Origin: Novakomyces olei | Taxonomy: Eukaryota | NCBI GenBank assembly: GCA_016906335.1 | Contig: JADEYG010000007.1 | Coordinates: forward strand, 124,001 to 188,000 | Reading direction: 5' to 3' | Length of the DNA: 64,000 nt | Shown: piece by piece, positions 10,331 to 33,873 of the stretch | How positions within the stretch are numbered: the stretch's first letter is position 1 | How the letters are laid out: each line of letters starts with the position of its first letter | The notes under the pieces: model-generated | The model's input: only the letters and a program-made list of their open reading frames with translations | Told to the model about the DNA's origin: nothing | Databases searched by the model: none | Made by a program: the position numbers and the translations under genes

Positions 10331-10694
10331 ATTAATTTGAAGCACCTCTCTAGTCAATATCATTTGGCAAAACAACTGCTCATTTTATTAGCAGCACTTT
10401 ATACAGATTGTCCCGAAGTTCTTTCGGGTTCTCTGTAAAAAATGGAAGATTAGATAATTGATTATCGTAATTCTGCTGAAAGAATTTGGTTTATACTGGA
10501 AAGATAAACGCTTTTTGGCGTTTTCAAAGTCTCTACCACAGAGGGTGGGATACATGCATTCAAGCATTAGTCATTTAACGAAATTCTTGCGAAAAATGTT
10601 TTGCTTTATTACAGATGCCAAAGTCGAAAAAGTAAAACAAATATGAATATAAATCAAAAAAAAAACATTTTAGATTAATACAAATAATGCTCTA

Positions 10695-13600
10695 TTACAC
10701 TTTATCCGACTCCGTTTGCAAAAGAGTCCCCGCCAAGTTCAGCCATGTCTGCTGTTCCTTGGAGAGAACTTGCCCCGGCTGTTCGAGCAGGTAATAAATA
10801 ATCTTTTGCACTTGCATGCGTAGAATTCTAAAAGCCAGCAGCGACCTCGCGTTATCAAACGCAAAGCGTAACCGGCCATGGTCGAGGGAGAGTTGGCCAG
10901 ACAGTAATTTAAACTCGCCATCCCCGCAAAGCATGGCCACAGCAGAAGGCTCTATCTTTGCCGTCTCCTGGGCATAAAGCTTCTTGCTTTGAATGAGTGA
11001 GTAGTATGCAATGAGGCGGGTATGTGCGTCCAATCGTTTACCGAAATTAACAGAGGTCGGGTGGATTGAAAGATGCTTGTTGTTCATGATCGTATGCGTC
11101 TGCCCCGAACTGGGATCGTGTTTCATTAGCTTTGGGTATAGACCCGCTCCGACAACTGCGCTTGTTATCCAAGTATTTTCACTGTTTGCGTTATATTGGT
11201 CCGGCAAAAAAAAGAACCGCGCTTGTCGGGAGCTCTGGTATCTCAGCGAGTTTAGCTGCTGCTGTAGCGTTGAGCTCAGTGAGAGCAATCGAGCATCAAT
11301 TAGCAGCTGAATGTATTGCTGCCGCAAATCTTCAATGGCAACAAGATCACGGGCAGACAAGAAGTTTTGACTGCAAAAGGCCTTTTCTGAAAGATGGCTG
11401 GACCCCGTGCACACGCGTCTCCATGTGCAGTACACTTGGAAGACAGTTTGGAAATCAGAATTATCCTTGGCAAAGTGCATTTTGGCTCTTTCTGCCTCTT
11501 TTTCCAAGCCAAACGGGCTTTGAAAAGGCGACTTTGTCGATAGACTGGCAGCAATCACGAGAGCAACGTCGAGACACTGGAATGCCAGGCCGAACAGGAT
11601 AATCTTGCCCAGATAAACGTCGACAGGGAGCATGGCTAGATGCTTACCCAGTAGGGTCAGGTCTTCATCCGTTGCGGTAAGAGCCCCAACGTCCACCAAC
11701 GAGCTAATTGCCCTCCGAACATTGTCCGGCGAAGGAGGATCAAGCGCATCTGTTAGCACTTCATTAATTCCCCCTAGCTCACACGTTTTAACGCGCATGG
11801 ACAAGTCCTGCAGCGAGAGCCGTTTGATCTCTGGAACCTGATGATCCGTCATCCATTTATTGTATCTATTACGCGTAAACAAGTGGAAGCAAAGACCCGG
11901 TCGGACTCGACCAGCACGTCCTCGTCTCTGTTGAGCGTTCGCCTTGGAGATAAAGCCCTCAACAAGTCGGCTGATCTGACGCTTCTCGTCAAAACGCATT
12001 TCCTTCACTTTACCCGTGTCAATTACACACGTAATGTCGGGTATAGTGATACCCGTCTCTGCAATATTTGTAGCCAGTACCACCTTTCTAACTCCCGGAG
12101 CAGGTGGCTCAAAGACGGCTTCCTGGTCGTTGCTGGCAATGGAAGAATGAAGAGGGTAAATGACCCAGGCGTTGCTGCCAAAGGCAGGGTGTGATAAAAG
12201 TGCACTATAGAGTCTCCTTATTTCTGCCAGGCCGGGCAGAAAAACAAGAATTGCTTGGCTAAACTGTCGCACACCGTCATCGCTGCCATAAGCAATCGTG
12301 TCTAAAAGGGACACAATCAAATCGTAGTTTATTCGGTACTCTTCCATCATTGCCAGGGTTTTCTGGGTTTCAATGCTGTAGCCGGAAAGGCAGCCGGAAG
12401 CAGCCGGTGATTGAGCGGCAGCCAGAGAAGCCTGCTCCGTTTCGTCATCAAACTCCATATTGAATTGGGAGCTTCGCAGTTTTGTACGTGCAAACGGTGA
12501 TTTTTCATCCAGCTTGTAGCCCGTCAGTTCTATCGCGTCTTCCAGAAACTTTTCCTCCACCGGGAAAGTGCGGCCGGGGATGTTTAGTATGGGGCAGTTG
12601 AACATGTACGTGGACAGCCGTTCTGCGTCCACTGTGGCGGACATGAGAATGACTTTTAAGTCGGGTCTGTACTTGAGGATTCTGCGGACAACAATCAACA
12701 AGAAATCAGAATCAATGCCCCGCTCATGCACCTCATCAATGATTAAATGCGAAATTGATTCTAGTGTCTTGGAGCCCTCCAACATGCGCAGTACGATTCC
12801 TGTTGTGGCGAATGTGAGACGAGTGCTCCTGCACGTTTTGGCCTCGAGTCGGATAGCGTAGCCGATGTGAGAACGTACGGTGCCACAGGCCCCACGAGCA
12901 TCGCCCAGCTCTTCAGAGACTCGATGTGCTAATGAAAGAGCCGAAATGCGTCTTGGTTCGGTACAAACTATATTGAAATCCAGCTGATGGCCAATCTTGT
13001 CCTCCATTATGTACGCAGGTATCTGGGTACTCTTGCCGGAACCCGTTTCGCCACAAACGATGACCACCTGGTTCGCTTCTATTACATCCAAAAGCTTATC
13101 CCTGAAACCAGCTACAGGTAGCTCCATCCTACCCAAATTCATCTCCATATACTGTGGGCTCTCCGTCCGCACTTGCCACTGTTGAGCCATTTGCAGCCTT
13201 GTTTCTGCTGGTACACGGTAACTCTCCGACTCAGACGCCGTACTGTCGCCTTTGTGCTCGTCTTGAGAAACGTTGGATTTGAGTTCCAGTCCTCGAAGAC
13301 GGTTTTCAAGCACTCTGGACAAAAGCTTCAACGTGTCCCGCGTACTCGAATCCCTCTGCATAATAAACTCTTTTTGTTTTTCGTCATAAAGGTCTCGGAA
13401 AGGCTTGGGCAGTTGAGTATGGGTCATTGTGCCGGCAGTTGCTGCAGAGGATACAATCGCCACCGTCGCTACATAGTTTTGCGCCATCTCGTACGACGTA
13501 CAGCAATCATCTGCCATATCATAATGCTCACTAGGAGCACCGTTAGAGAATTTAACTGTAAGAGACGTCTGCACACAGATAGTGCCCTTGGGATGACTCC

Positions 13601-15068
13601 AGGTTAGCTCGCAACCTTTGTCTTTACGTTTACACGCATCCTGAAACAGCTTCACCGGGTAAAGCGACTTGCTTGTCGACTTGGGGATCACAAAATTGCG
13701 AATGTTGAGCATACGGCTGTTTGCGTCTTGCGCTTCCACCTGCTGTGGCTCATCAAACATGCCGGCTAGATCTGGTGCAGAGTCGGAACCTCCTTCATCG
13801 CCAGAGTTTTCGTTTGTTTTAGACCTCTCTGAGCCGTTGGCAGTGGTAACGGAAGGAGAGCTTGCCTTGCTGGACAGGTCGGGTGAATTATTGCTGGAGA
13901 GCAGCAGCTCATCTTCGCGTTTCAGCTTTTCAAATAAAGCGGTTTTTCTGGGCTGAATCTCTCTTTGTGCACGAGCTCCGTCAAAGAGTACGTCTTTTGA
14001 TAAATCGTTTGCGAGTTTTTGCATCTTTATCAAGTCTTTGTCAGCATCTTCTGTATTACCCCCATTTCTCCGCAGTCTCACAATGCACCGTTGCACTTCA
14101 ATGATAGAAAGTCGCAGCTCTACATACTTGCTTGTGATATCATTGAAATCGTCGTCATCCTCACTGAAACGTCTCATTTGATCAAGAGTCCTTTGTTTTA
14201 TAGCAGCCGCTTCTTCTTCAGCCACTTCTGACCTTTCGGGTCTGTCGTGCTTGCCCTTGGACGATTCTATTGGCCGGCCCACAGACCGTTGAGTCCGGTC
14301 GGCTTGTAACTTTTCGGTATTCCAGTTTTTCCTTATATCAACCGAGCTAGACCCTGGACTGCCACCGACTGAAACGCTGGTCGATTTGATCGACTGGGCA
14401 AACCCTTGGTATCCATAATTGACTTGCGTGCTTGTGCTTAGCACTAGATTGCAAAACGAATCGTCAAGGTCCATATACTTTGAAGCATCCATGGCGGCGT
14501 TTATAGATTCCTGTGAGAACCCCAAATGACGAAGAAGACAATAGTTTACGCATAGCTTGGTAAGCGTCTTGTCTTTTTTCTCCAAAAGCATATCCAGTCC
14601 CCAAGACGACTTGCCTTTGCCACTAGACGCAGACGCAAAAAGAGTCTTTATATCTGGCTGAGCCAACACGTCATCAACCAGCTCGGGATCCATCTTTACC
14701 AATTCTTGCACAGAAAGCTTCATACGCTTTTCCACTTGAGCCTGTCTTATCTGCCGATCCGCTAGTCTTTCTGCAGGCACGTAAATTTTATCTACCAGCC
14801 CTTGCCAGTACAGATCTTCCATGCTTTCAAGTGTATCATCTGTACTGTTAGCAGCATCCTCCTTATGCGAGGAAAGTCCATTTGAACTGCTGTTTTGACC
14901 AGACGCAGCAGCAGAGGCAAAGGCAGAGGTAGAAGCAGACACTTCCTGCGACTCCTCAGGCTCGGGTGACTGAACTGTTTTGCTCTTCGAGGGAATCGAA
15001 GTAGTTGCAACTGCTCGAGCCGGATTCGAGGAGGCTCCTTTCCCTTTCTTCCCGCCCTTTTTCGCCAT
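10695..15068 (-). CDS. DEAH-box RNA helicase, DHX29/DHX57-like, intronless
   Basis: GETGSGKST, DEVH, SAT, TNIAETGITI and QRRGRAGR motifs; ATG at 15068 (MAKKGGKK). Confidence 0.92.
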   Translation of the reverse strand: MAKKGGKKGKGASSNPARAVATTSIPSKSKTVQSPEPEESQEVSASTSAFASAAASGQNSSSNGLSSHKEDAANSTDDTLESMEDLYWQGLVDKIYVPAERLADRQIRQAQVEKRMKLSVQELVKMDPELVDDVLAQPDIKTLFASASSGKGKSSWGLDMLLEKKDKTLTKLCVNYCLLRHLGFSQESINAAMDASKYMDLDDSFCNLVLSTSTQVNYGYQGFAQSIKSTSVSVGGSPGSSSVDIRKNWNTEKLQADRTQRSVGRPIESSKGKHDRPERSEVAEEEAAAIKQRTLDQMRRFSEDDDDFNDITSKYVELRLSIIEVQRCIVRLRRNGGNTEDADKDLIKMQKLANDLSKDVLFDGARAQREIQPRKTALFEKLKREDELLLSSNNSPDLSSKASSPSVTTANGSERSKTNENSGDEGGSDSAPDLAGMFDEPQQVEAQDANSRMLNIRNFVIPKSTSKSLYPVKLFQDACKRKDKGCELTWSHPKGTICVQTSLTVKFSNGAPSEHYDMADDCCTSYEMAQNYVATVAIVSSAATAGTMTHTQLPKPFRDLYDEKQKEFIMQRDSSTRDTLKLLSRVLENRLRGLELKSNVSQDEHKGDSTASESESYRVPAETRLQMAQQWQVRTESPQYMEMNLGRMELPVAGFRDKLLDVIEANQVVIVCGETGSGKSTQIPAYIMEDKIGHQLDFNIVCTEPRRISALSLAHRVSEELGDARGACGTVRSHIGYAIRLEAKTCRSTRLTFATTGIVLRMLEGSKTLESISHLIIDEVHERGIDSDFLLIVVRRILKYRPDLKVILMSATVDAERLSTYMFNCPILNIPGRTFPVEEKFLEDAIELTGYKLDEKSPFARTKLRSSQFNMEFDDETEQASLAAAQSPAASGCLSGYSIETQKTLAMMEEYRINYDLIVSLLDTIAYGSDDGVRQFSQAILVFLPGLAEIRRLYSALLSHPAFGSNAWVIYPLHSSIASNDQEAVFEPPAPGVRKVVLATNIAETGITIPDITCVIDTGKVKEMRFDEKRQISRLVEGFISKANAQQRRGRAGRVRPGLCFHLFTRNRYNKWMTDHQVPEIKRLSLQDLSMRVKTCELGGINEVLTDALDPPSPDNVRRAISSLVDVGALTATDEDLTLLGKHLAMLPVDVYLGKIILFGLAFQCLDVALVIAASLSTKSPFQSPFGLEKEAERAKMHFAKDNSDFQTVFQVYCTWRRVCTGSSHLSEKAFCSQNFLSARDLVAIEDLRQQYIQLLIDARLLSLSSTLQQQLNSLRYQSSRQARFFFLPDQYNANSENTWITSAVVGAGLYPKLMKHDPSSGQTHTIMNNKHLSIHPTSVNFGKRLDAHTRLIAYYSLIQSKKLYAQETAKIEPSAVAMLCGDGEFKLLSGQLSLDHGRLRFAFDNARSLLAFRILRMQVQKIIYYLLEQPGQVLSKEQQTWLNLAGTLLQTESDKV

Positions 15069-15865
15069 TATTAAAGAGGACGGGAAGAGGTGCCACAGAT
15101 AAAAGGACAAGTCTTAAAAATACAGCGTTCGCATTGGTCTCATGCTGTATATCAACGTCCCAGCATGTGTGACATTCGAGTCAAAGCCTTATGTGTAGTT
15201 GCTAATATTAAATAAAATACGAATATTCCTGCTGTACTCGTAAATAATCTATCTGTCATCTGCTGTATGCGTGAATTTTGACTATTTTTCGGCTTTTATA
15301 ATGTTCTTTATTATATTTTTTTTTTTCGAGATTTAGCTGTATTTACTATTTTCTTGTTGCGTGGCAAGAATCACACTTACATAGCGATAAGCTGTAATTT
15401 GCTTGTGAAATCTTTCTTTTGCAAGTTTTCATAATACCATTCTCATGAAGTTTTCATATCTACAAAAAACTGGTATATTTGGATGTTCATAAATTAAAAA
15501 TGTTATGCTAATCGTGGCAAATTTAACCCCATCCATCATTAAAATTAATGTAGCTTTATTAAGTCCAAGCTTCGCCGGTACAATTTTTCAATTTCTGCCT
15601 CTGCGTAAGCTACAAATTCCGTCGGGAGCGTCTTTTTGTCAAATTCTTTGATATTGGCATGTAATGCCAGGCCAGTACCGCTCTTTGGTAATGGAAATAA
15701 AAACATGGCTTTATCGAATAAGACTGTGTTTCCCTGAATATGAAGGCGTCGTGAATAAAACATTAGTTGCCCTCGCTATATTTGTGCATTCGACCATTGC
15801 CACCCTGACTTTATCAGCAATCAACGTACGCTTCCCCATAATTATTTATAAAGCGAATAAGAAAC

Positions 15866-16080
15866 TGTTGAATATAGAAGGTTGGAATTTGCTCTTATGG
15901 TAGATTAAATGAATTAGATACTCTAGATTGCTTCAGCTGAATCCCCCCCGAGGGTGTGAGGGTTCGCTTGAGCTATATATATGTAACTATGTATTTTTGA
16001 GTGAGTATTCTGTAAAGCTAAAAGTCAAACAACTGACACTCATGGTTGAGTTGTCTTAGCCGGTCAGTGAGTCGGCGAGT

Positions 16081-16178
<98 letters not shown>

Positions 16179-16205
16179 AGGGGATAATAGATTCATATTT
16201 CAACA
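15866..16205 (-). repeat. Element A 3' LTR (340 bp) containing (TAT)32; PPT adjacent (plus-strand CTCCCCTT at 16206)
   Basis: Direct repeat of 33579-33900. Confidence 0.95.
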
Positions 16206-16259
16206 CTCCCCTTGAATCTTTTATTTCCTTTTTGTATTCTTGTATTTATTTTTTTTTTG

Positions 16260-17710
16260 TTATTCTTCATTGTATAGCATTTTTGTAAATTTAGTGAATT
16301 TGTTTCCAAGTAGGTTCTTGGTCAATCCATCTGCCTTCATGTTTCGTGAGGGGCATCTCTGTATGCTTATCAGTCCATTTCTCACAATATCCATCACATA
16401 GTAGCAGGTGTTACTTAGATGTTTTGAACCCTGGTAGTTTCCACCATTAGTTGCAAGTAATATGCAGGCGTTGTTATCGCAGTAGACGATTGGGATGTTA
16501 TCGGGCCCTTTATTAATTTCGTCCATTAGATATTTGTAGTACAAGGCTTGATTGACTGTTAGTTTCATAGCTTCGAACTCCGCCATCATTGTACTTGGTG
16601 TTACAATTTTTTGCTTTTGCGAGTTCCAGGCTATTGGGCCGTTATTTTTTCCTAGTGAGACAACGTATCCTGATCGGGATTTTCTGTCGCAAGTGTCTCC
16701 GGCGAAATCAGAGTCGCCCCACGAGTGTATCTGTAGATCATTTTCTCTAGTGTAGGTGATACATGTGTCCAGTGTAGCGTTTAGATATCTCATAGTGTGT
16801 TTTAAGGCCTGTATTTGTTCTTCATTTTGTCTTTTTGTATGTTTGCTTAACATACTTATTGCAAATCTGAGGTCTGGTCTTGTCCATTCGGTCAAATATA
16901 TTAATTTTCCTATAATAGTTGGATAGATTTCCAGACAATCATAATTTTCAACCGCGGGATGATAGAGTGAATTGATGTTTGTGATGGGCTGACTTATGTA
17001 TTTTAGGTTAGTGTCTCCGTAAGTGCGTATAATTGACTTAGCAAATTGTGACTGTGACAATTTGAGTATTCCTTTGTCGCGATCATATGTAATGTCCATA
17101 CCAAGATATCTCTTTATTTTTCCAAGTGACTTGATGGAGTAAAATGTTTTCAAAAAGGATTCAAATTCAAGTCTCTTTCCTTTCTGTTTTTCGACGATCA
17201 TGAGGTCATCTACGTAGACAGCAATAATTAAAGAGTCATTGTAATATATGGCAGAATCTTTGTTTGATTTTGTTAGACCGTATTTTGTCAATGTAGAATC
17301 CAGTTCACTGTTCCACGATCTTGGTGCCTGTTTGAGACCATAGAGACTTTTGTTTAATTTTAGGACAAGGCCGGGTTTAATTTTCACTCCATCGGGTTTT
17401 TTCATGTACACTGACTCCTTTAGTGTACCATATAGGAAGGCTGTATCCACGTCGATTTGATAGATTTCATAATTTTTAATTACGCTGTAGGCTAATAACC
17501 ACCGTATGCTGTCAGGACGAGCGACTGGGGCGTATGTATCTTCATAGTCTTTTCCAAAAATCTGTGAGTACCCTTGTGCTACTAGTCTTGCTTTTCTAAT
17601 TATTTCATTCGACTGTTCTCCTTGTTTCAGTTTAAACACCCATCTGCATCCAACTGTACGTATATTTTGTGATTGGGGAACGACTTTCCATACTTCATTT
17701 CTTTCCATTG
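16260..17710 (-). CDS. Element A pol, 3' part: reverse transcriptase and RNase H (separated from the 5' part by element B)
   Basis: KARLVAQG, DVDTAFL, LYGLKQ, YVDD, DSDFAG and ADGLTK motifs; joins ...KELKAM|ERNEVW when B and one TSD copy are removed. Confidence 0.95.
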
Positions 17711-18057
17711 TGTTAGGCCATAGTGTAGATAGTAAAATTTAAATTTAAAATGACATAATTAAATTAAATTAATTCACTCCAAATACGGAATTTAACCGAT
17801 TTGGAGGAATATTTAATTACTAATCATTAAATCACGCCACTGATCGGGTATCTGTAACCTATCAATGATAAGGTGATTACTAATTGATCGGTTACTTCTG
17901 ATCCTATCTGATTACTAATTGATAGGAAAGTCTTGATCCTATCTCTGAGATAAGAGCTGAGCCTTGAAGTCTATAAAAGGACAAGGTTTTCCATAGTTTA
18001 AGAGTAGATTCAATTAATCTAAAGAGTTATAACAGTGAGTTACTTCCAGTTATAACA
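17711..18057 (+). repeat. Element B 5' LTR with three TTACTAA sites, TATAAAA at ~17972 and a GTGAGT splice donor at 18035
   Basis: Identical by eye to 30038-30384. Confidence 0.95.
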
Positions 18058-18787
18058 ACTTTTTTCACTGCTAACATTGTCAGTGAATCCGTCAGGAGAC
18101 AGCCGACGGCCTCGCATTGTCTACTCTGAGACATTTGCAAATCTCTTGAAGCAGGCAAAAACCGATCCAAAGGTTGTTGTCTCGGCTGGCTCTATCCGCC
18201 GAAGCAATACACCCAAGGATAAGGATAAAACCTCTGTGTCTGGACTTACCGACCAGAGTGCCCATTCAGAGAAAAATACCTCTATTCATCAATTGAATAA
18301 GAGGAAAGAAAGAAACGCTCGCCGATCGCAGGCATTCAAAGAGCGTAAACGCAACGGTCGAATTTCCAAGGAGCCTGAGTCAATTGCTGCTATTGCGGCA
18401 AAGGTGCTCAGAAAACCTCCTCCACCAGCGCAGAGACTTGGTCCTTACCCAGCTCCCACAGTTCCTTCAGTTTCTCTGGCCACTATTTCTGCTACAACTC
18501 CTCGCTTGCCTCTATCAGAGGAAGAAGTTTTTCGAAAACAAGCGCACTGGACAAGCAAAGCGGCGGCAAATCTACGCTACGAGGAAACATACAACAAATT
18601 GGTGGCCAATCGCATTCAAGAACTGCACAACAGGAAGAAAACAAAATATCTTCTGGACAACATTGTTGAGGACAGATTCAAAATTCGTCTTTACAGAGGA
18701 GAAGATCCAAACAAAGTTGAGAAGGATTACTACGAGCACTTGAAAAGTGGACAGCAATCACCAGCGTTTTTGAATACTTTGTATTAG
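18034..18787 (+). CDS. Element B accessory ORF0 (~234 aa, basic and Pro-rich, bZIP-like basic region); ATG formed by splicing A18034 to TG18084-18085
   Basis: Open frame with no Met; predicted intron 18035-18083 (GTGAGT...GCTAAC...CAG) yields in-frame ATG AAT CCG. Confidence 0.75.
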
Positions 18788-18854
18788 TCTTTTATATTTA
18801 ATATATTTAATTCTGTATCAATTTAATTTAAATTGATTAAAATATATTTTAAAT

Positions 18855-20625
18855 ATGGACTTCAAAATCAAGCTGCCTGAACCAGCAAAGCTGAATGGTC
18901 ATTCAATGACCCATAGAGAGTTCCAATCATGGAGAAGCTCTGTGGTTAAATGGCTGACATATGCCAAAGCAGGAGGCAGTGTTACCGGGATTTCAGATAT
19001 AGACTTAATTAGCATGTTCCTCGAATCGAACGCTACAATCTATGCTGAAGAACTCAGGGACAATGCTAGTGTAACGACAGATCAGATGCTTGATCATCTG
19101 GAGCGAAGCATTGTACCCAACGACTATTTACCACGCGCTTACAGCAAGTTTGTTACCTTCGCTCAAGGAACAAAAAGCATTAGCCAATATGCCACGCAGC
19201 TTAAATTGAAATCAATGGAACTAGAAATAGTTAACGAAGCCATCTTAATTCAACAATTCATACATGGGCTAAATGAGAGAACAAAGCCTCAAATAATGGG
19301 ATCTTTGAGAAGCGCATTTGGAAATCAGTCGGGAAACAACACAGGAATGACGAAATGGAAATGGCAAAGTGTGGTTGATGTGGCAACAGGCTACGATTTT
19401 ACTGCAACAAGACCATACATAGGGAGCATGAATCCTAAACAAGGCAACCAACAAACTGAAGCAAAGGCAACTACTTCTGAGAAGAAAGAACCAGAGAAGC
19501 CAGCCCTCAGAACAAGATGTACCTTTTGTCGCCGCACTGGGCACACGTACGAGCAGTGCTTTAAACGAAAGAATCAATCAACCATCAGTGCTCTTAAAGA
19601 TGATTCTGAAATAGTTAGCAAAGAAATCAAACTTGATTACAATTGTTCTGCTGTCCAAAACACAAACCAACAATTTCTAGTAAATCTACCTGTGGAAATA
19701 AATGATAAAGAAATCAAATGTCAGGTCCTGATTGATACTGGAAGTGATATTGATGTTATTGACTCAAACTTTTGCAATGTTCACCGACCAACATACAAAG
19801 AAAGTGACCACAAAATTCAAATGGCCTTTCAAGGATCGAAAACTGTGAGCAGATATATGGCCAAAGTCATGTTCAAAGGCAGCGAGTTAAATTGCGCCGT
19901 TGCAAGACTCAGAACTTCTGATCTATTGATTGGCATGGGAACACTGAGTAAGCTTGGGGCAATTGTGAACACTCGCAAACGACATATACAATGGCAGGAA
20001 GATGCAAATGAAAGAAGGTTTGTCAAGCCAGAAGTACTTCCTGTAGTCAGCTCAATAACAATCGATGACAACAAGAGAATTGAAGTCCAACAAGTTACAA
20101 ATGAGGACTTGGTTGACCCAGAAAAAGTACTGCAGATACTTCAAGACAAGTTTGATCAAACTTTGATCAAGGATCCTCCAAGCAAGTTGCCTATAATGAG
20201 ACCTGTGGTTGCTACATATGAGCCAATTGATCCAGAAAAAAGGTATAACATAAAAAAGTGGTACCCAAGCAAAAAGCTTATGTTGCCTCTGAAATTAAAG
20301 ATTGATGAGCTATTAAAAGCAAAGATGATCTCAATCTCTAGCAAAGAACCTAGTGCAATACTGTTTCCTATTCCCAAAGACAAAGAAATGGTTAACAAGC
20401 TAACAGATCCTAAAGAAATAATTAAATATTTGAGATTTGTTAATGATGCTCGACCTCGCAATGCAAACATGAAGCGTTTCTACATTCAAGTACCACGTAT
20501 TGACATAGTTGTACAAGACATTGCACGAGCAAAATACAGAACTAAGATTGATTTGAAGGACGCTTTCTTTCAATCAAGAATACAACCCGGACAAGAACAC
20601 TACACGGCATTCTGGACACCATTTG
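18855..20625 (+). CDS. Element B gag-pol, 5' part: Gag with CCHC knuckle, aspartic protease, start of RT
   Basis: CTFCRRTGHTYEQC, LIDTGS and KIDLKDAFFQ motifs; continues as ...WTPF|GIYQWNVMPQG after C is removed. Confidence 0.93.
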
Positions 20626-21331
20626 TGTAAGGTGGCCCTTAGAGGGGAGCACCGCGGTGTAAACTCGCGTGTCGCTACAGGCGAACACGGACTGTCCTTT
20701 GCGAGACCGCTCGACAAAGGAAGTTCAATCGGTTACCGCGCGAAGCGAGTACCGAGAAACGGGAACGTAGACTTGCGCCCGGCGCAAGAACTAAGGAAAA
20801 GGAAAAGGACGTTGTCCTTGAAAAGGCGACGGCGCTTCTCTAAAGCTTACCTGCTACAAGGCTATGTAGCAACTTTGAGATTATAAGCCCGTGGAGAGAG
20901 TTCTCTCCATGGGCGACTATGTAGACTATCCTATGAGGCTTAGCGGCTCGCTTAGCCACTTCGCGGCCTAAGCCTCATCCCACCACGATCTCAATGCGAT
21001 GGTCCCAGACCATCCGCATTGGGAAAGCGGTGGCGAGCTATGAACTCTATGGATCGATCTATCTAGCTTCGTAGCGATGCGCGATCGCTACTACTACTGT
21101 CATGCGCCGCGACGTGCCTACGTCGCGCGGGCATGGACGTGGACCTGCTTCGCGCGAGCCAGGTCCAACCTGCTCGCGAGCTAGGCCACTTACGCGCTTC
21201 GCGCGAGTAATGTCCAACATTACCTCGCGCGAGCTATTTAGATCTATCTAGCCTGAAGTCATCGCCTTTGGCGCTACAGGACTTCAGGCGTCGTTCGCTG
21301 TCGTGGTTCACGCGAGGCGGGGATCATGACA
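20626..21331 (-). repeat. Element C 3' LTR (706 bp, GC/CpG-rich, many inverted repeats)
   Basis: Identical by eye to 26824-27529. Confidence 0.95.
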
Positions 21332-21450
21332 CTATCCCCCCTTTCTAGGGCGAGGTCTCCGCGCCTATGAAAACCACGTTAGCTACTAGACTGCTATATA
21401 AGTGCGCTTTCGGCAATAAAACTATCTAAGTAATATAAAGTAATTTGCGG

Positions 21451-21951
21451 ATGCAAAACAAGAATTTTCGCTCTGCGTTCCGGATCAACAACAACATGTC
21501 GCTTGCTCATGTCAGAGATGCTATCGTGCCCTGCGAGTATTGCGTGGCAAACTCTTTGCCGTGCCGCTTCGTTCTCGGCACTGCACCGTTTGTGCGTCGC
21601 TGTATGGTCTGCGCGGCACGTCGCACCCGTTGCGAAGGAGGCCGTTTTCTTCATGACAATGAGGAGAACGAGCGCCTTGTTGCCGCGCGTGAAGAACAGC
21701 GTGTGAGAGAGCGCGAGGAGCTGCAGCGTCGCCGCGGAAGACGTCGCGCGCGACAGCGAGCGCAGGAGGAAAGACGTCAGGCACCATTCGAGGTGCATGT
21801 AATTGCCGATGACGGTCCTCCGTCAACAAATTCGATCGTCGGTTCGGTTTCGAGTGCGCTGGCCCAGCGCGATGCGACTATCGCTCGCCTCGAGCGCCGC
21901 AACCGTGCGTTGGAGCGCGAGATTCTTTCGCTCCGTGCCGCTCGTCCGTAA
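21451..21951 (+). CDS. Element C antisense accessory ORF: Zn2Cys6-like cluster plus charged coiled coil (ATG at 21451 or 21496)
   Basis: C-x2-C-x6-C-x12-C-x2-C-x6-C pattern; upstream TATATAA at 21395; downstream AATAAA x2 at ~22078-22091. Confidence 0.75.
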   Translation: MQNKNFRSAFRINNNMSLAHVRDAIVPCEYCVANSLPCRFVLGTAPFVRRCMVCAARRTRCEGGRFLHDNEENERLVAAREEQRVREREELQRRRGRRRARQRAQEERRQAPFEVHVIADDGPPSTNSIVGSVSSALAQRDATIARLERRNRALEREILSLRAARP

Positions 21952-22178
21952 TTGTGTGCGTGACTCAACAGCCATTCCTCCTTGCGTTGTCCCATATTAT
22001 TTGTTCGACAAGTAATTGAATATGTTTTTGTATAATTTTCTCGTAATAATTTAAACAATAATAATCGCGGTATAATCAATAAATCAATAAATCACTTTAA
22101 GAGTTGAGTCTTAGTTTCGCGTGGGTGACGAAAGTTGAAGGTCGTCGCCCGAATAGGGAGCTCGCTTAGCATTCCCAT

Positions 22179-25100
22179 TTAAGAACCAGGTTTGTTCGGG
22201 TGTGCACGGTGGAATTCGTTTACCAAATCCATGCAGTTGTGTAAATGTTTCGCAGGCTCCCACGTGCGGTCGGAGGCGTCGTAGCCTTTCCAATGCACAT
22301 AATATTGAAGTTGCTTGCGTCGGATGCGCGAGTCTAGAACTTGCTCGACTTCCCATTCCGGGTTAGCATCCAATATAACTGGAGGTGGTGGCGCGATCTG
22401 TTCTCGCGCGATCTGCGACACTGCGTTATGTCGCTCTAGCAATGAAGCGTGGAAGACAGGATGTATACGCATTGCCTTCGATAGTTCCAAGCGATATGCA
22501 CGCAAACCAACGCGTGCGATAATCCTAAACGGTCCCAGCTTCTTGGCATCCAGCTTATCGCATGGCCGCGTAGTGCTAATATTTTTTCGCACTAGCCAGA
22601 CTTGATCGCCAATAGCAAAACTTTTGTCGACGCGATGCTCATTTGCAAAGCGCGCCTGGTCGCTGAGAGACTTTTCGATTTCGACTTTCAATAAGCGATG
22701 TAGATTCCGTAGGTATTCGATACGTTCATCCGCGGATGGGCATTGTCGCGAAGATGAAATCGTAAAGCGACATTTCGGGTTGTAGCCGTAAAAAGCGTAA
22801 AACGGTGTTGTCTTTGTAGACGACTGCTCTGAATTGTTGTACGCGAATTGAGCAAAAGGTAACAAATTGACCCAATTGCTTTGCTGATAGTTGCTGTAGA
22901 TCCTCAGATATTGCTCTAAGATCTGGTTAAGCCTCTCTGTTTGGCCGTCGCTCTGTGGGTGGTACGCGGTAGACAACTTCTGCTGTATATCGCATTGCGA
23001 AAGCAAGTGTCGTGTAAACTGCGATACAAATACCGAACCCCTGTCAGAGACTATTTCGTCTGGTAGGCCATAGTTGGCAAATACGCGATGGGCGTAAATC
23101 AAAGCTAGCTCAGTAGCCTTAATAGATTCGCGTATTGGTATAAATATTCCGATTTTCGTAAATCGACAGGTGATTACCCATATGGAGTCGTAGGTTTTTT
23201 GTGTAATCGCATCGCGCGACTCCGGTAATTTCACAATGAAGTCCATTGAGATACTTTCCCAGGGTCTCGCTGGTACTCTCAGTGGGTGTAGTAGTCCATA
23301 CGGTGCATGTCGCGAAGGCTTGTTTCGCGCACAAGTATCGCACGACTCGACGTAGCTAAATATCTCTTTTCGCATGCGTGGCCAATAGTAGTTTCGCATG
23401 ACTAAGTCCAACGTTTTGGCCTGGCCAGGGTGACCCGCGACATGCGAATCATGGCATGTCTGTAGTATAGCTAATCGCAAACGATTGTCGTTTGGGATGT
23501 ATAGCAAACCCGAAAACGTTAGAAGACCCTTTTCGTTTATACTGTAGTTTCGCAGATGTTCCGACACTGGCTGCTTGCCGAGGTCCTCCATGACAACCTT
23601 GCAAGTCTTGTCTTTGCCGTAACATTGTTTAATCTGATCATCAATGCCTGTATCTTCTACGGTCGCGAACAGGAAGTGCGATCTGTCCAATAGTGCCATA
23701 GTTCGCTCTGGTTTCTCCTGTTCCTTATCGCCGACATAATCGCTTCGCCTAGACAAGGCATCCGCTTTGTGATTTAGCTTTCCAGCACGGTATTCAATAA
23801 CGAAATCATAGGAAGCGATCAATTGCGACCATCGCATCTGTCTACGGCTAAGTACTCTTGCTGTAAGAAAGTACATGAGATTGCGGTGATCCGTATAAAT
23901 TGTAGTGCGATGTAACGGACTCTCCAGGTAAACTCGCCATTCGCGAAGACATGCGACAATAGCTAACAGCTCTTTGTCGTAGATATCATAGTTTACTTCC
24001 GCGCTAGTCATTTTTCGCGAGTAGAACGCGATGGGTCTCATTTCGTCGCTGTTGTCTTTCTGCGAGAGAATCCCACCGATCGCGAAGTCCGATGCGTCGG
24101 TTTCCAAATAACTTGGCTTCTGCGGGTCGAAATGCGCAAGGATCGGCGCACCCAGAAAAGCGTTCTTCAGAGTTTGGAAAGAGTCAATGCACTCCTTGGA
24201 GAAATTAAACTGCGCATCCTTCTTCAGTAAGCGGGTGAGAGGGATGGTAATTTTGCTGTAGTTTGCAATAAATCTGCGATAGTAATTTGATAGGCCTAAG
24301 AACGACATAACGTCTTTCGCGTTCTTGGGTTCAGGCCATGTCTCAATAGAATCAACTTTCGCTTTCTCCATAGACACTCCTTTCGTAGAGACAACAAAGC
24401 CTAGGAACTCTGTCGTGTCTGTGTGGAACTCGCATTTCTCTAGTTTCACAAATAAGTTTGCTTTGCGAAGTCGTTTCAGTACTTCGCGAACATGCGTCAC
24501 ATGCTCCTCCTCGGTGTCCGAATAGATCAAGATGTCGTCCAAGTATACAACAGCAAAGCGATCCAGACAATCGCGTAATGTGTCGTTCGCAAGAGCTTGG
24601 AAAGATGCCGGGGCGTTCGTGAGCCCGAAAGGCATAACCTGATATTCGTAATGTCCATAACGCGTACGGAAGGCGGTTTTCCACTCGTCGCCTTCGCGTA
24701 TACGGACAAGATTATACGCGCCACGGAGATCTAATCGCGTAAATATCGTCGACTGACGAATGCGATCCAATAGCTCCGATATGAGCGGCAGCGCATAGCG
24801 ATTTTTGACAGTTACCGCGTTTAGCCCGCGATAATCTACGCACAGTCTCAGCGAACCGTCCTTCTTTTTCACAAAAAGAATTGGAGCCCCCGCGGGCGAT
24901 GAAGACGGCCTAATGAATCCCTTCGCTAGATTGTCTTTAATGTAGTCGCGTAGTGTTTGTAGCTCGCGTTCGGCCAGAGGATATATAGGCCCGAACGGCG
25001 GCTTCGCGCCTTCTGTCAACGGTATTGCGTGATCCCACGCCTGATGCTGTGGTAGAATGTCTGCATTTCTTTTCTCAAAAAGATCGCGAAAGTCTGCATA

Positions 25101-25730
25101 CTCGGGAGGTATAGCGACGTTTTTGTCCTCGCTTTTAGCGTCGGTCGCGTATACGCACAGCAATCCCGAGTCGTTGCCTCGCGATAGCTTAGCAAATTCC
25201 GTCGCACTGATTTGCGATGGTTCGTCTTGTGCCTCGGGCTTCTTGAGGCAGTTTGCTAAGCAATAGGAAGACTCGAATTCGACTTTTGCACGTCTCCATG
25301 CAATCCTTGGCTCATGTTTGTCGAGCCATGGCTTTCCTAAAATAACGTCGTGTCCAGAGAGCGGTATCACGTTAAACATCATAGTCTCGCGATGTTCGCC
25401 TATGGTGACCTCCATGTTTTCAGTCTGGAAGCGAACACCTCCGGTGCGAATCGCTCTTCCATCCACAACTCGTAGTGGCTCAATCTTCGCCTTCTTCGTT
25501 ATATCGATTATGCTTCTCGTAGCAAGGCTCTGGCTGATAAAATTCGACGTCGCGCCTGAGTCGATCAGCGCCTTCGCGTCCAGCTGGCCCTTGCTAGTTC
25601 TCAAATTTGCAGTAACTGTGAGATGTATTCCTCTGTCAGGTTCGGGTACCACTGACATCACCTCCGAAAGCCTCGTGTCATTAACGCCCAGATCAGGCCT
25701 TTCTTTTAGACCTGGGCTCTCGCTTTTCCC
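22179..25730 (-). CDS. Element C pol (PR-RT-RH-IN-chromodomain), in the -1 frame relative to gag
   Basis: LIDSGAT, LRLCVDYR, MPFGL, YLDD, TDASD, HHCC, SDRG and GPF motifs; C-terminal WEVEQVLD...VHWKGY...TWEP chromodomain. Confidence 0.96.
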   Translation of the reverse strand, partial: GKSESPGLKERPDLGVNDTRLSEVMSVVPEPDRGIHLTVTANLRTSKGQLDAKALIDSGATSNFISQSLATRSIIDITKKAKIEPLRVVDGRAIRTGGVRFQTENMEVTIGEHRETMMFNVIPLSGHDVILGKPWLDKHEPRIAWRRAKVEFESSYCLANCLKKPEAQDEPSQISATEFAKLSRGNDSGLLCVYATDAKSEDKNVAIPPEYADFRDLFEKRNADILPQHQAWDHAIPLTEGAKPPFGPIYPLAERELQTLRDYIKDNLAKGFIRPSSSPAGAPILFVKKKDGSLRLCVDYRGLNAVTVKNRYALPLISELLDRIRQSTIFTRLDLRGAYNLVRIREGDEWKTAFRTRYGHYEYQVMPFGLTNAPASFQALANDTLRDCLDRFAVVYLDDILIYSDTEEEHVTHVREVLKRLRKANLFVKLEKCEFHTDTTEFLGFVVSTKGVSMEKAKVDSIETWPEPKNAKDVMSFLGLSNYYRRFIANYSKITIPLTRLLKKDAQFNFSKECIDSFQTLKNAFLGAPILAHFDPQKPSYLETDASDFAIGGILSQKDNSDEMRPIAFYSRKMTSAEVNYDIYDKELLAIVACLREWRVYLESPLHRTTIYTDHRNLMYFLTARVLSRRQMRWSQLIASYDFVIEYRAGKLNHKADALSRRSDYVGDKEQEKPERTMALLDRSHFLFATVEDTGIDDQIKQCYGKDKTCKVVMEDLGKQPVSEHLRNYSINEKGLLTFSGLLYIPNDNRLRLAILQTCHDSHVAGHPGQAKTLDLVMRNYYWPRMRKEIFSYVESCDTCARNKPSRHAPYGLLHPLRVPARPWESISMDFIVKLPESRDAITQKTYDSIWVITCRFTKIGIFIPIRESIKATELALIYAHRVFANYGLPDEIVSDRGSVFVSQFTRHLLSQCDIQQKLSTAYHPQSDGQTERLNQILEQYLRIYSNYQQSNWVNLLPFAQFAYNNSEQSSTKTTPFYAFYGYNPKCRFTISSSRQCPSADERIEYLRNLHRLLKVEIEKSLSDQARFANEHRVDKSFAIGDQVWLVRKNISTTRPCDKLDAKKLGPFRIIARVGLRAYRLELSKAMRIHPVFHASLLERHNAVSQIAREQIAPPPPVILDANPEWEVEQVLDSRIRRKQLQYYVHWKGYDASDRTWEPAKHLHNCMDLVNEFHRAHPNKPGS

Positions 25731-26653
25731 GGTTCCGTGATACTGTCCATAACCACCGAGATGCGTTGCTCATAATTGCGTTGCTTCTGTTTGCAATCAC
25801 GTGCGCGATGACCTTCGCGTCCGCACGTAAAACATCTGTTCTCTTTCTTTCGACGCTGGCGTTCGTCGCTGGTAATGCTCTTCTTTTCGTAACTGGTAGC
25901 ATCTACCTCCATGGGAGTGTATCCTTTGTTCGCGATCGTCGCGCCCCTATAGCCTGAAGCGCCCTTGGCGTTCGTACGGCTAGCGCTTTCGTAGTAACGA
26001 TCCGACAACCTTTCGTCCACGCGTACAGACTTCTCAATTAAGTCTGACAATGTACGCGATTTTTCCAACCGAGATAATTCGTCCTTAATTCGATCTTTCA
26101 ATCCTTGATAATATTCGTAGCGTAAACTGTGATCGCTAAAATCCAAGTGCGAAGTGATCTGCTGAAAACGCGAAGTATACTCAGCAACAGATCCTCGCTG
26201 TTTGAGCAATGCTAGCTCCCGCTCAGCCTGACTAATGCGGTCGACGCTCCCAAATGTCGTGGAGAGCTCGTCGCAAAACAGGGCAAAGTCACTGGTAATT
26301 AGGCTTTCATCGTGGTCGCGCAAGTGGGGTTCAAACCACGCAAAAGCGGCACCGCGCAGATAAGATACCGCAAACAGGACCTTCGCTTCGTCGTTGCGAA
26401 ACTCATGTGGCTTGAGTCTCACGTATAAGCGAACCTGTGCAAGGAAAGTATCCACCGATCTGCGATCACCTCTGAATGTATCCGGCTTCGAAATGCTTGG
26501 CCCTTCGCTGACTCCTGATCGTCGAGATCCCCGGGATCCCATTTCCTGGCGAAGGCCTTCAATAACCGATTTGTCCTTAACGCGCTCCTCTTGGAGCGAC
26601 GCGATCTGCGCCTGCAGCGTCTGCAGAAACGCGTTCAAGTCCTCTTGACTCAT
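25706..26653 (-). CDS. Element C gag (retrotransposon Gag with CCHC zinc knuckle)
   Basis: PDTFRGDR, SYLRGAAFAW, LKQRGSV.EY, PMEVD and CFTCGREGHRARDC motifs. Confidence 0.95.
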   Translation of the reverse strand: MSQEDLNAFLQTLQAQIASLQEERVKDKSVIEGLRQEMGSRGSRRSGVSEGPSISKPDTFRGDRRSVDTFLAQVRLYVRLKPHEFRNDEAKVLFAVSYLRGAAFAWFEPHLRDHDESLITSDFALFCDELSTTFGSVDRISQAERELALLKQRGSVAEYTSRFQQITSHLDFSDHSLRYEYYQGLKDRIKDELSRLEKSRTLSDLIEKSVRVDERLSDRYYESASRTNAKGASGYRGATIANKGYTPMEVDATSYEKKSITSDERQRRKKENRCFTCGREGHRARDCKQKQRNYEQRISVVMDSITEPGKARAQV

Positions 26654-26807
26654 CGTAATTCAATAATTCGTTTGTGCTGCTAAACCGTAGCAAAGCACCC
26701 TTCGTCGCAACAACTTAGTGCGAAATAAAACTTGTAAATCGAAATCTGTGTACGCCTCCGTGCGTGACACCTTTCAACGCCGTGTAAATCTGTAGCTTAG
26801 ACGAGCT

Positions 26808-26821
26808 CACGGGCTTATAAT
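26808..26821 (-). promoter_or_regulatory. Element C primer-binding site, self-priming type
   Basis: 14-nt perfect inverted repeat of LTR positions 27078-27091; lies 2 nt inside the 5' LTR boundary; no TGG. Confidence 0.75.
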
Positions 26822-26823
26822 AG

Positions 26824-27529
26824 TGTAAGGTGGCCCTTAGAGGGGAGCACCGCGGTGTAAACTCGCGTGTCGCTACAGGCGAACACGGACTGTCCTTTGC
26901 GAGACCGCTCGACAAAGGAAGTTCAATCGGTTACCGCGCGAAGCGAGTACCGAGAAACGGGAACGTAGACTTGCGCCCGGCGCAAGAACTAAGGAAAAGG
27001 AAAAGGACGTTGTCCTTGAAAAGGCGACGGCGCTTCTCTAAAGCTTACCTGCTACAAGGCTATGTAGCAACTTTGAGATTATAAGCCCGTGGAGAGAGTT
27101 CTCTCCATGGGCGACTATGTAGACTATCCTATGAGGCTTAGCGGCTCGCTTAGCCACTTCGCGGCCTAAGCCTCATCCCACCACGATCTCAATGCGATGG
27201 TCCCAGACCATCCGCATTGGGAAAGCGGTGGCGAGCTATGAACTCTATGGATCGATCTATCTAGCTTCGTAGCGATGCGCGATCGCTACTACTACTGTCA
27301 TGCGCCGCGACGTGCCTACGTCGCGCGGGCATGGACGTGGACCTGCTTCGCGCGAGCCAGGTCCAACCTGCTCGCGAGCTAGGCCACTTACGCGCTTCGC
27401 GCGAGTAATGTCCAACATTACCTCGCGCGAGCTATTTAGATCTATCTAGCCTGAAGTCATCGCCTTTGGCGCTACAGGACTTCAGGCGTCGTTCGCTGTC
27501 GTGGTTCACGCGAGGCGGGGATCATGACA
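26824..27529 (-). repeat. Element C 5' LTR
   Basis: Direct repeat of 20626-21331. Confidence 0.95.
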
Positions 27530-27534
27530 ATTTG

Positions 27535-30050: not shown

Positions 30051-30384
30051 TGTAGATAGTAAAATTTAAATTTAAAATGACATAATTAAATTAAATTAAT
30101 TCACTCCAAATACGGAATTTAACCGATTTGGAGGAATATTTAATTACTAATCATTAAATCACGCCACTGATCGGGTATCTGTAACCTATCAATGATAAGG
30201 TGATTACTAATTGATCGGTTACTTCTGATCCTATCTGATTACTAATTGATAGGAAAGTCTTGATCCTATCTCTGAGATAAGAGCTGAGCCTTGAAGTCTA
30301 TAAAAGGACAAGGTTTTCCATAGTTTAAGAGTAGATTCAATTAATCTAAAGAGTTATAACAGTGAGTTACTTCCAGTTATAACA
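30038..30384 (+). repeat. Element B 3' LTR (347 bp)
   Basis: Direct repeat of 17711-18057, preceded by PPT. Confidence 0.95.

Positions 30385-33793: not shown

Positions 33794-33873
<80 letters not shown>

Follow-up and report, generated by a model that had tools for sequence, protein, structure and literature searches.

A candidate leader intron that would assemble the start codon of a methionine-less open reading frame upstream of gag in a fungal chromovirus

Results

A young chromovirus carrying a nested insertion

The DNA analyzed here is a 64,000-nucleotide window (positions 124,001 to 188,000 of contig JADEYG010000007.1 from Novakomyces olei), and all coordinates given below are positions in this window, on the plus strand unless stated otherwise. 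We found a Ty3/gypsy LTR retrotransposon with a chromodomain (a chromovirus) that extends from LTR to LTR over positions 17711-30384, as defined by its domains and its LTRs. It is flanked by the target-site duplication CATTG, with the left copy at 17706-17710 and the right copy at 30385-30389. The 5' LTR (17711-18057; 347 bp, TG...CA) and the 3' LTR (30038-30384) were delimited by comparison with each other and are identical at 347 of 347 positions. A polypurine tract, GGGGGAGGA (30029-30037), lies immediately 5' of the 3' LTR.

The region at 18855-20625 encodes, by Pfam, gag, protease and the N-terminal part of reverse transcriptase (RT), and is interrupted there by a nested insertion. The frame resumes from 20625 at 27535-30050, which encodes the remaining part of RT, RNase H, integrase and the chromodomain. 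Read continuously across the insertion, gag-pol has 1428 codons to its first stop and is otherwise intact. The gag start at 18855 proposed in an earlier note, made from the sequence without database searches, is borne out by a Retrotrans_gag domain at residues 51-141 (E 6.5e-8) of the open reading frame that the ATG at 18855 opens. The pol domains were RVT_1 (2.6e-14), RT_RNaseH (1.1e-20), Integrase_H2C2 (2.8e-19) and Chromo (6.2e-9), and there was a sub-threshold match to aspartyl protease. The order on one strand (gag, protease, RT, RNase H, integrase, C-terminal chromodomain) is of the chromovirus type, and this order together with the paired LTRs confirms the assignment to gypsy in the same note. 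The integrase also carries a Tf2-1-like SH3 domain. Because the LTRs are identical and the 1428-codon gag-pol is intact, the element is very young.

The nested insertion, which splits the RT of the chromovirus, occupies 20626-27534 on the minus strand and consists of an unrelated gypsy element (20626-27529) and of the second ATTTG of its target duplication. Its LTRs are 706 bp and identical along their whole length. The nested element is not part of the feature studied here.

We looked for relatives of the chromovirus and for additional copies. There were no gag relatives among 1166 candidate proteins in the 'longer' class or among 41 pattern matches in metagenome contigs. The pol piece gave 99 matches among proteins of 1466-4185 aa, with at most 43% identity, and those that spanned most of the query were 24-35% identical. 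A blastn search of the window with 17711-18854 recovered only the self-match and the 3' LTR. An Rfam scan of 17600-19000 gave a single sub-threshold match, to snoZ30 (19.9 bits, compared to a gathering score of 50).

The leader upstream of gag is free of ATG

The earlier note had counted approximately 990 nt without an ATG before the gag start, and this proved correct: plus-strand ATGs occur at 17865 and then at 18855, leaving 17866-18854 without one. No other gap between ATGs in the window, on either strand, is as long as these 990 nt; there are 982 ATGs on the plus strand and 1021 on the minus strand, and the next longest gaps are 751 and 569. Based on mononucleotide composition, 16.8 ATGs are expected in a stretch of 990 nt. 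Dinucleotide shuffles of the stretch had a mean of 12.9 ATGs and a minimum of 5, and none of 2000 shuffles was without an ATG.

Much of the stretch is occupied by an open reading frame, here called ORF0, that is followed by a 67-nt AT-rich spacer (18788-18854) between its stop and the gag ATG. Given the amino acids and codons of ORF0 itself, only 1.56 out-of-frame ATGs would be expected in it, and 9.9% of 5000 codon permutations of ORF0 were without any, so the absence of out-of-frame ATGs is not significant by itself. The signal in ORF0 is therefore mainly the missing Met.

ORF0 looks like genuine coding sequence

From stop to stop, the open reading frame covers 18056-18787 and has 243 codons, none of them for Met. 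The body of ORF0 is at 18084-18787, where the TG at 18084-18085 would complete an ATG begun by A18034. Its codons at 18086-18784 specify 233 amino acids, with no Met and no Cys, and it ends with the stop TAG at 18785-18787. Within 18058-18854 the open frame is 242 codons long, compared to a mean of 83 and a maximum of 212 in shuffled sequences; 240 codons were reached in none of 5000 shuffles.

Codon usage favored the ORF0 frame with each of three training sets. The score was 0.143 bits per codon with training on host genes (-0.043 and -0.196 in the other frames), 0.113 with training on the element's own gag-pol (-0.124 and -0.194), and 0.154 with training on the other transposon open reading frames (-0.106 and -0.196). 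The scores in the ORF0 frame fall within the range of control coding chunks. As in gag-pol, G is more common at codon position 1 than at position 2 (0.27 compared to 0.15). At the Met frequencies of three sets of open reading frames from the window, the probability of finding no Met in 233 amino acids is 0.004-0.025. Among windows of 233 aa, none of the 3657 from host open reading frames and none of the 1194 from the gag-pol of the element lacked Met; of the 2175 from other transposon open reading frames, 112 did. Taken from the sequence, ORF0 looks like genuine coding sequence, and its predicted product is a basic, largely helical orphan protein of 234 aa.

We did not recover a relative of this protein in any of the collections searched. 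There were no matches among 1.84 billion representative proteins, no relative of near length among 1091 word-sharing candidates, no usable match in the ESM Atlas, and none among 157 pattern matches in metagenome contigs and 15 in viral contigs. Pfam gave no family up to E 10, and hence neither a PMD nor a Tr28 domain, and the PDB gave only three matches, with E values of 0.3-0.8. Within the window, a tblastn search with ORF0 gave, beyond the self-match, three short, weak matches (E 1.5-7.7) that we take to be due to chance. The AlphaFold single-sequence model was poor, with a mean pLDDT of 59.5. We considered whether its basic stretch is akin to the basic region found in Yap-type bZIP proteins, and dropped this idea, as Pfam gave it no backing. 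Gene callers skip Met-less open reading frames, so the absence of ORF0 from protein databases is weak evidence.

A candidate 49-nt intron spans the end of the 5' LTR

We identified a candidate spliceosomal intron of 49 nt at 18035-18083, based on a donor GTGAGT (18035-18040), a branch site GCTAAC (18070-18075) and an acceptor CAG (18081-18083), with the branch A 9 nt from the 3' end. Direct reading of the sequence agreed with the earlier note on all of these signals and on the length. The candidate straddles the LTR end at 18057: its first 23 nt, with the donor, belong to the LTR, and its last 26 nt, with the acceptor, lie beyond. Its removal would abut A18034 and T18084-G18085 to make an ATG in the frame of ORF0, with an A at -3; the claim that splicing would supply an ATG in frame with the Met-less open reading frame, for a protein of 234 aa, thus holds at the level of sequence (Met plus 233 residues). 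Wherever transcription plausibly starts, the spliced RNA would contain no ATG ahead of the junction ATG.

The candidate has the features of a fungal spliceosomal intron: a GTRNGT donor, a CTRAY shortly before a YAG, and a length like that of host introns. For comparison, we used nine probable host introns, predicted from sequence and selected from 33 candidate rows by taking the shortest alternative per site, outside of transposons, that joined long open frames. These are 44-92 nt in length, with a CTRAY located 6-16 nt from the 3' end and a YAG at the end, and the candidate does resemble them in size and layout, as had been suggested. Limited to 100 nt, the strict motif GTRAGT...CTAAC...YAG has a single occurrence in the 128 kb of both strands, at 18035; the expectation from shuffled sequence is 0.88 per 128 kb. 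By our own arithmetic, the chance of a strict intron that has its acceptor in the first 60 nt of the open reading frame and creates an in-frame ATG at the junction is roughly 5e-6.

The first 23 nt of the intron (18035-18057) are present in both LTRs. The RNA that was reverse transcribed was therefore unspliced, as a model in which spliced RNA is not the genome requires. We also compared three RNA runs labeled as the same species and one contig run to a 16.2-kb region (5100-21300), chosen because host genes and two probable host introns in it could serve as controls. There were 4, 2, 4 and 1 records, all partial; RNA depth was at most 0.21 in all 30 bins, host genes included, and there were no joints, making this comparison uninformative on expression and splicing. 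A second intron or a frameshift linking ORF0 to gag was rejected: there is no intron-like motif there, and the frames do not overlap (the ORF0 stop is at 18787 and the gag frame opens at 18837).

Promoter, hairpins and the priming region

The only TATA-type match in the LTR is TATAAAA at 17972-17978, in agreement with the position of approximately 17972 proposed previously. There are direct repeats upstream of it, in the presumed U3. The match is 63 nt 5' of the donor. With the usual distance from TATA to start, this would leave at most approximately 35 nt for exon 1 and hence for the spliced leader. Calling the end of the LTR 'U5' is an assumption.

There are two hairpins around the candidate intron. 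Hairpin 1 (18025-18056) has an 8-bp stem made by two copies of the palindrome GTTATAAC (18025-18032 and 18049-18056), with the intron donor in its loop. The 10-mer AGTTATAACA stands before both the donor and the LTR end. In hairpin 2 (18064-18088), TTCACTG pairs with CAGTGAA, the branch site is in the 7-nt loop, and the acceptor AG is in the stem. Hairpin 2 begins 7 nt past the LTR end, in the usual place of a primer-binding site. The complementarity between CAGTGA (18033-18038) and TCACTG (18065-18070), proposed earlier as a possible means of tuning splicing efficiency, is present. The helix that would mask the donor is possible at approximately 3 kcal/mol above the minimum free energy, but the preferred fold pairs TCACTG with the downstream CAGTGA.

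There was no recognizable tRNA-type primer site after the 5' LTR, with no TGG within 45 nt, and the window contains no tRNA genes that could be compared to a primer. We also considered priming of the Tf1 type, taking as a working criterion a complementarity of at least 11 nt between the 5' end of the transcript, within the LTR, and the sequence that follows the LTR. The best complementarity between the LTR and the post-LTR region of the chromovirus was 6-7 nt, compared to at least 14 nt in the nested element by the same test. Because its complementarity is too short, we rejected Tf1-type self-priming for the chromovirus.

Discussion

A proposed splicing switch as the best explanation

We consider a splicing switch to be the best explanation of this arrangement and give it about an even chance of being correct: unspliced RNA would be scanned to gag, and spliced RNA would make ORF0. 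A single promoter in the 5' LTR would produce both kinds of RNA. The unspliced RNA, with the LTR end and the post-LTR region still in place, would be the template for reverse transcription and the gag-pol mRNA, and ribosomes on it would pass approximately 850 nt free of AUG and initiate at 18855. In a fraction of the transcripts, the host spliceosome would excise 18035-18083, and the joining of A18034 to UG at 18084-18085 would create the first AUG of the spliced RNA, in frame with ORF0. Spliced RNA, without the LTR end, could not be copied into a new element. The anatomy of the sequence and its statistical unlikelihood are direct observations; we infer a transcription start near 18000, the splicing, the translation of ORF0 and any function that ORF0 may have. 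Several considerations weigh against the switch. Exon 1 would be short, the missing out-of-frame ATGs of ORF0 carry no significance of their own, and ORF0 belongs to no recognized family and has a poor structure model. A near-perfect intron would endanger the genomic RNA unless it were restrained, and the donor and acceptor are both within a repeated CAGTGA that pairs with TCACTG in hairpins. Given these repeats in hairpins, part of the apparent splice signal could be a by-product of selection for an RNA structure used in reverse transcription.

The main rival to the splicing switch is initiation at a non-AUG codon, which we consider unlikely. ORF0 would be translated from the unspliced RNA, the gag AUG would be reached by leaky scanning, and the intron motif would be incidental or minor. 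An ATG-free leader and a Met-less coding frame are what leaky scanning needs, and there is a precedent in rice tungro bacilliform virus (RTBV), in which ORF I starts at AUU, ahead of approximately 900 nt with no AUG inside (PMC5902531). In-frame near-cognate codons are available early in the frame (CTG 18068, TTG 18077, GTG 18083, ATT 18116 and four more), with the hairpins just downstream of them, and the same review indicates that downstream structure can favor weak starts (PMC5902531). However, a purine at -3 together with a G at +4 is found at none of the eight in-frame near-cognates of the first 48 codons, and an A at -3 at only one (TTG 18077), although a weak start may still be used. 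Non-AUG initiation would also leave unexplained why the sole strict-consensus intron of the 128 kb is placed where it builds an in-frame AUG.

It is also improbable, in our view, that ORF0 is unexpressed, as what remains of a gene that was captured or has decayed, or as a chance frame in a leader kept ATG-free for gag, with the splice motifs as by-products of hairpins and repeats. Such an origin would fit the lack of homologues in the protein, Pfam and contig searches, the poor structure model, the location of donor and acceptor in copies of the repeated CAGTGA, and the composition of hairpin 1, which is made of two copies of a 10-mer that takes in the LTR terminus. It does not fit the length of ORF0, which no shuffle of 5000 reached, or the coding score, which is frame-specific and normal in size. 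Moreover, the element is very young, and a dead passenger of 700 nt would still need a reason to have neither stops nor Met; the absence from databases counts for little, as Met-less open reading frames escape gene callers. The pairing of CAGTGA with TCACTG could instead be a Tf1-like self-priming device, in which the RNA starts near 18031-18033 and folds back, leaving the donor at its 5' end and unspliceable. The lack of a TGG in the 45 nt past the LTR and the Tf2-1-like SH3 domain of the integrase would be consistent with this, as would the nested element, whose clear self-primer of at least 14 nt indicates that the mechanism is used in this genome. The forced helix between the donor and TCACTG costs only approximately 3 kcal/mol, and fungal elements including Tf1 and Tj1 are described as self-priming (PMC4600332). 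But the helix is short, with 6 Watson-Crick pairs in a row, or 7 if one G-U is counted, where the nested element has at least 14. The paired site starts 7 nt past the LTR end rather than 2-3 nt, R and U5 together would come to only approximately 25 nt, and ORF0 would be left unexplained. We therefore regard self-priming as very unlikely.

The splicing switch could be one part of a larger program like that of complex retroviruses, combining a split AUG, feedback by ORF0, a ratio set by hairpins and perhaps an unconventional primer, although we think it quite unlikely that all of this holds in a fungal chromovirus. One splice decision at the LTR end and priming region would then separate the genome and gag-pol mRNA from the accessory mRNA. 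The ORF0 protein might act back on the element's RNA, like Rev or CERV, by restraining splicing or exporting the unspliced form. The hairpins, with the donor and the branch site in their loops, might set the ratio of spliced to unspliced RNA, and the element may use an unconventional primer, there being no visible site of the tRNA type or Tf1 type.

Significance and comparison with known systems

In the open full-text literature that we searched, we found no comparable arrangement in a fungal LTR retrotransposon. Should the splice prove real, the element would be the first case of its kind among fungal LTR retrotransposons within that literature. It would make an accessory protein by splicing its leader, and would keep AUG out of 850 nt of coding sequence so that the same RNA can serve gag. 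The strategy of a spliced accessory gene is already known, and a leader intron that makes the start codon would be a variation on it, as well as a very compact case of an initiation codon assembled by splicing. The division between genomic and accessory RNA seen in retroviruses, Cer1 and a plant pararetrovirus would have arisen independently in fungal chromoviruses. With one 49-nt intron and one open reading frame, the element would offer a small, tractable system for the balance between splicing and genome production. Met-less open reading frames in transposon leaders are invisible to gene callers, which may explain the missing database relatives of ORF0.

Among described systems, Cer1 of C. 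elegans makes the CERV protein from a spliced retrotransposon mRNA (PMC10309623). Cer1 is likewise of the Ty3/gypsy type, with an orphan, species-specific protein made from spliced RNA and an unspliced RNA that is both genome and gag-pol mRNA (PMC10309623). In contrast to the present case, CERV has 5 exons and 517 aa, and its splicing and its role in RNA export have been demonstrated experimentally (PMC10309623). The fungal element has a single candidate 49-nt leader intron, an open reading frame upstream of gag and an AUG that would be built at the junction.

RTBV (PMC5902531) offers precedents for both leaky scanning and an AUG lent by splicing. It is also reverse-transcribing, approximately 900 nt of its coding sequence lacks internal AUGs and lets ribosomes scan downstream, and ORF IV acquires its AUG by splicing, from a uORF in the leader (PMC5902531). 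It differs in being a plant pararetrovirus without LTRs or integrase. In addition, a whole short uORF is fused to ORF IV over a long intron, rather than an AUG being pieced together from two exons, and the AUG-free open reading frames begin at AUU or at weak AUGs (PMC5902531).

In Arabidopsis Ty1/copia elements, host splicing also divides the RNA into genomic and mRNA forms (PMC5580714). However, these belong to another superfamily and another kingdom, and their spliced subgenomic gag RNA alters the gag:pol ratio and adds no extra gene (PMC5580714). Plant Tat/Ogre elements are Ty3/gypsy elements with an extra open reading frame between the 5' LTR and gag, and Ogre has a spliced intron (PMC4408406). 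Unlike ORF0, the extra open reading frames of these plant elements carry PMD or Tr28 domains and presumably have their own start codons, and the Ogre intron lies between gag-protease and pol (PMC4408406). Tf1 and Tj1 of fission yeasts are fungal gypsy elements of the chromodomain/Tf type with no tRNA primer site and a post-LTR region that folds on the LTR (PMC4600332), and the chromovirus likewise has no recognizable site of the tRNA type and could fold in this way. They differ from it in that the complementarity in the chromovirus is only 6-7 nt, and it is the nested neighbor that has the extent of pairing expected of a self-primer.

The target element

The element studied here is a plus-strand Ty3/gypsy LTR retrotransposon bounded by TG...CA LTRs (17711-18057 and 30038-30384) that match each other at 347 of 347 positions, with a CATTG duplication on either side. 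The 3' LTR is immediately preceded by a polypurine tract. An unrelated, minus-strand gypsy element (20626-27529) interrupts the RT of this target element. With that nested insertion removed, gag-pol opens at the ATG at 18855 and stays in frame through 1428 codons until its one stop, with matches to gag, RT, RNase H, integrase, a Tf2-1-like SH3 and a chromodomain, and a sub-threshold match to protease. The target is a chromovirus-type Ty3/gypsy element of very recent origin, and nothing but the nested insertion disables this copy.

A candidate intron across the end of the 5' LTR

The earlier note proposed a splicing switch, in which removal of a 49-nt intron builds the ATG of ORF0, a Met-less open frame upstream of gag. 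Direct reading of the plus strand bore out all of its coordinates: the donor GTGAGT is at 18035, 23 nt before the LTR end, and the branch site GCTAAC (18070) and acceptor CAG (18081-83) are just past that end. Excision of the 49 nt would put A18034 before T18084-G18085, and the ATG so formed is indeed in frame with the stop-to-stop ORF at 18056-18787. No ATG would precede this junction ATG in the RNA, and an A would occupy its -3 position.

The host-like size and layout ascribed to the intron also held. With its branch A 9 nt from the 3' end and its terminal CAG, it is within the range of nine probable host introns hand-picked from 33 ORF-joining candidates (44-92 nt, branch A 6-16 nt from the 3' end, YAG ends), and its signals are nearer consensus than those in most of the nine. 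A strict intron pattern (GTRAGT, then CTAAC 3-18 nt before YAG, total ≤100 nt) had a single match in 128 kb (both strands), at 18035; shuffled windows gave 0.88 matches. By arithmetic from the observed rates, a strict intron with its 3' end inside the opening 60 nt of the ORF, and with a junction that makes an in-frame ATG, would arise by chance with a probability on the order of 5e-6, or perhaps 1e-4 with a looser motif, both figures being conditional on the Met-less ORF, which is itself unexplained.

The first 23 nt of the candidate intron are present in both target LTRs, and therefore the RNA behind this copy had kept the intron. Such retention is what a putative genomic role for unspliced RNA must require. 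The main internal worry for the splice model is the position of the promoter. Because the only TATA box (plus strand) is 63 nt before the donor, the spliced leader (exon 1) would be ~35 nt or less, and a transcription start near 18030 would exclude the model. Just upstream of the TATA box, the presumed U3 (17876-17960) contains two copies each of GATTACTAATTGAT(C/A)GG and TGATCCTATCT, which may serve the LTR promoter as transcription-factor sites.

ORF0 and the ATG-free leader

ORF0 comprises 242 codons in a 797-nt leader and is longer than the longest frame in 5000 of 5000 dinucleotide shuffles (mean 83, maximum 212). Codon-usage log-odds were positive for the ORF0 frame and lower for the other two frames with each of three training sets: host ORFs (0.143 vs -0.043 and -0.196), the target's own gag-pol (0.113 vs -0.124 and -0.194), and other transposon ORFs (0.154 vs -0.106 and -0.196). 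Control coding chunks scored 0.02-0.19. With 24 K and 22 R among its 233 residues the product is basic, and it lacks Cys. A low-confidence prediction makes it largely helical, including a better-scoring helix on a basic stretch (residues 62-89) and a long one spanning 145-203.

As had been claimed, ATG is missing from the plus strand between 17865 and 18855. No other gap on either strand of the 64-kb window is as long as these 990 nt (the next are 751 and 569 nt), and dinucleotide shuffles of the stretch contained 12.9 ATGs on average (minimum 5; 0 of 2000 had none). When the amino acids and codon choice of ORF0 were held fixed, only 1.56 out-of-frame ATGs were expected and 9.9% of permutations had none; the oddity inside ORF0 is therefore its 233 residues without methionine. 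At local Met frequencies the probability of this is 0.004-0.025. Met-free windows of that length were found in 0 of 3657 host windows and 0 of 1194 from the target's own gag-pol, and in 112 of 2175 from other transposon ORFs.

Predicted RNA structure

The region of the LTR end and intron folds better than shuffled sequences (z = -2.8; 2 of 200 shuffles were equally good). Two copies of the palindrome GTTATAAC pair as an 8-bp hairpin whose loop contains the donor. In a second hairpin TTCACTG pairs with CAGTGAA; its 7-nt loop holds the branch site, and the acceptor AG is paired in its stem. RNA structure might control splicing. The pairing of donor CAGTGA with TCACTG suggested in the earlier note can form at a cost of only ~3 kcal/mol (-32.1 vs -35.0), but it is not the preferred fold. 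In the minimum-energy fold, a 9-bp helix (18001-09 with 18119-27; eight Watson-Crick pairs and one G-U) surrounds both hairpins, the LTR end and the candidate intron. It recalls leader helices around the primer site of other retroelements, a likeness that could be due to chance.

Possible origins of the ORF0 start codon

A coding-like, Met-less ORF in an ATG-free leader needs explanation, and two mechanisms of other reverse-transcribing elements fit. We give about an even chance to a splice-made AUG, in which splicing would supply the start codon of ORF0 and unspliced RNA would be the genome. This would resemble P4 of RTBV, for which a splice is described as providing the AUG of a leader uORF (PMC5902531), and CERV of Cer1, described as an accessory protein that a gypsy-type retrotransposon makes from spliced RNA (PMC10309623). 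Non-AUG initiation alone, with leaky scanning through the AUG-free ORF, has a described parallel in RTBV ORFs I-III (PMC5902531); we consider it unlikely, as none of eight near-cognate codons is in good context, which counts mildly against it, and the position and quality of the candidate intron favour a splice instead. The two mechanisms could coexist.

ORF0 might also be an unexpressed relic with incidental splice motifs, which we regard as similarly improbable. Because one repeated motif supplies both donor and acceptor, their resemblance to splice sites may partly be a by-product of RNA structure. No relatives of ORF0 were detectable among 1.84 billion representative proteins, Pfam, PDB, and metagenome and viral contigs. 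Their absence argues weakly against a gene, because gene callers skip Met-less ORFs and the DNA collections searched contain little fungal sequence. Least probable, and quite doubtful, is that the region is a self-priming module and transcription starts late: in a Tf1-type self-priming test, the target showed complementarity of only 6-7 nt.

Retroviruses are known to make spliced subgenomic RNAs. Such RNAs are also described for copia-type elements (PMC5580714), and plant Tat/Ogre elements are described as having, like the target, extra ORFs upstream of gag (PMC4408406). Full-text literature searches turned up no fungal LTR retrotransposon described with a leader ORF, leader intron or splice-assembled start codon. 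A splice-made AUG, if confirmed, would be a variation on a strategy already known rather than a system of a new kind.

Priming of reverse transcription

The label PBS given to the region after the target's 5' LTR is unsupported, there being no TGG within 45 nt. In the same self-priming test, nt 3-16 after the 5' LTR of the nested element were perfectly complementary to LTR positions 439-452, a run of at least 14 nt and the signature reported for Tf1 and Tj1 (PMC4600332). This match would have transcription of the nested element begin near LTR position 439. In the target, the 11 nt at 18060-18070 (six T, then CACTG), which begin 2 nt past the LTR, exactly complement CAGTGA (18033-38) plus an A-run; a relation to priming is speculation only.

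The surrounding locus

The window is of fungal origin; it carries Zn2Cys6 and 'fungal-specific transcription factor' genes, and also short introns with CTAAC-type branch sites. In three RNA runs with the same species label, essentially no reads fell on 5100-21300, even on host genes (including a 1457-aa DEAH helicase), and at 95% likeness transcripts of this organism therefore seem to be missing from these runs.

Three LTR elements are nested inside one another, with the target in the middle. The outer, copia-type element (RVT_2, minus strand, ~15867-33900, LTR starts near 15867 and 33580, target duplication GAAAC) holds the target inside its RT, and its two LTRs differ by one mismatch and an 18-nt TTA-repeat indel. 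The 706-bp LTRs of the innermost element (minus strand, target duplication ATTTG) are identical over their whole length. Together the three make up a three-deep nest of young LTR elements. Repeat-induced point mutation is expected to leave many C-to-T changes, and these are absent from all three. Elsewhere in the window, AAAT/AAAC-type simple-repeat arrays at 47907-48280 and 57540-57770, 9.4 kb apart, which the repeat finder gave as a single 57-copy family, are ordinary microsatellites.
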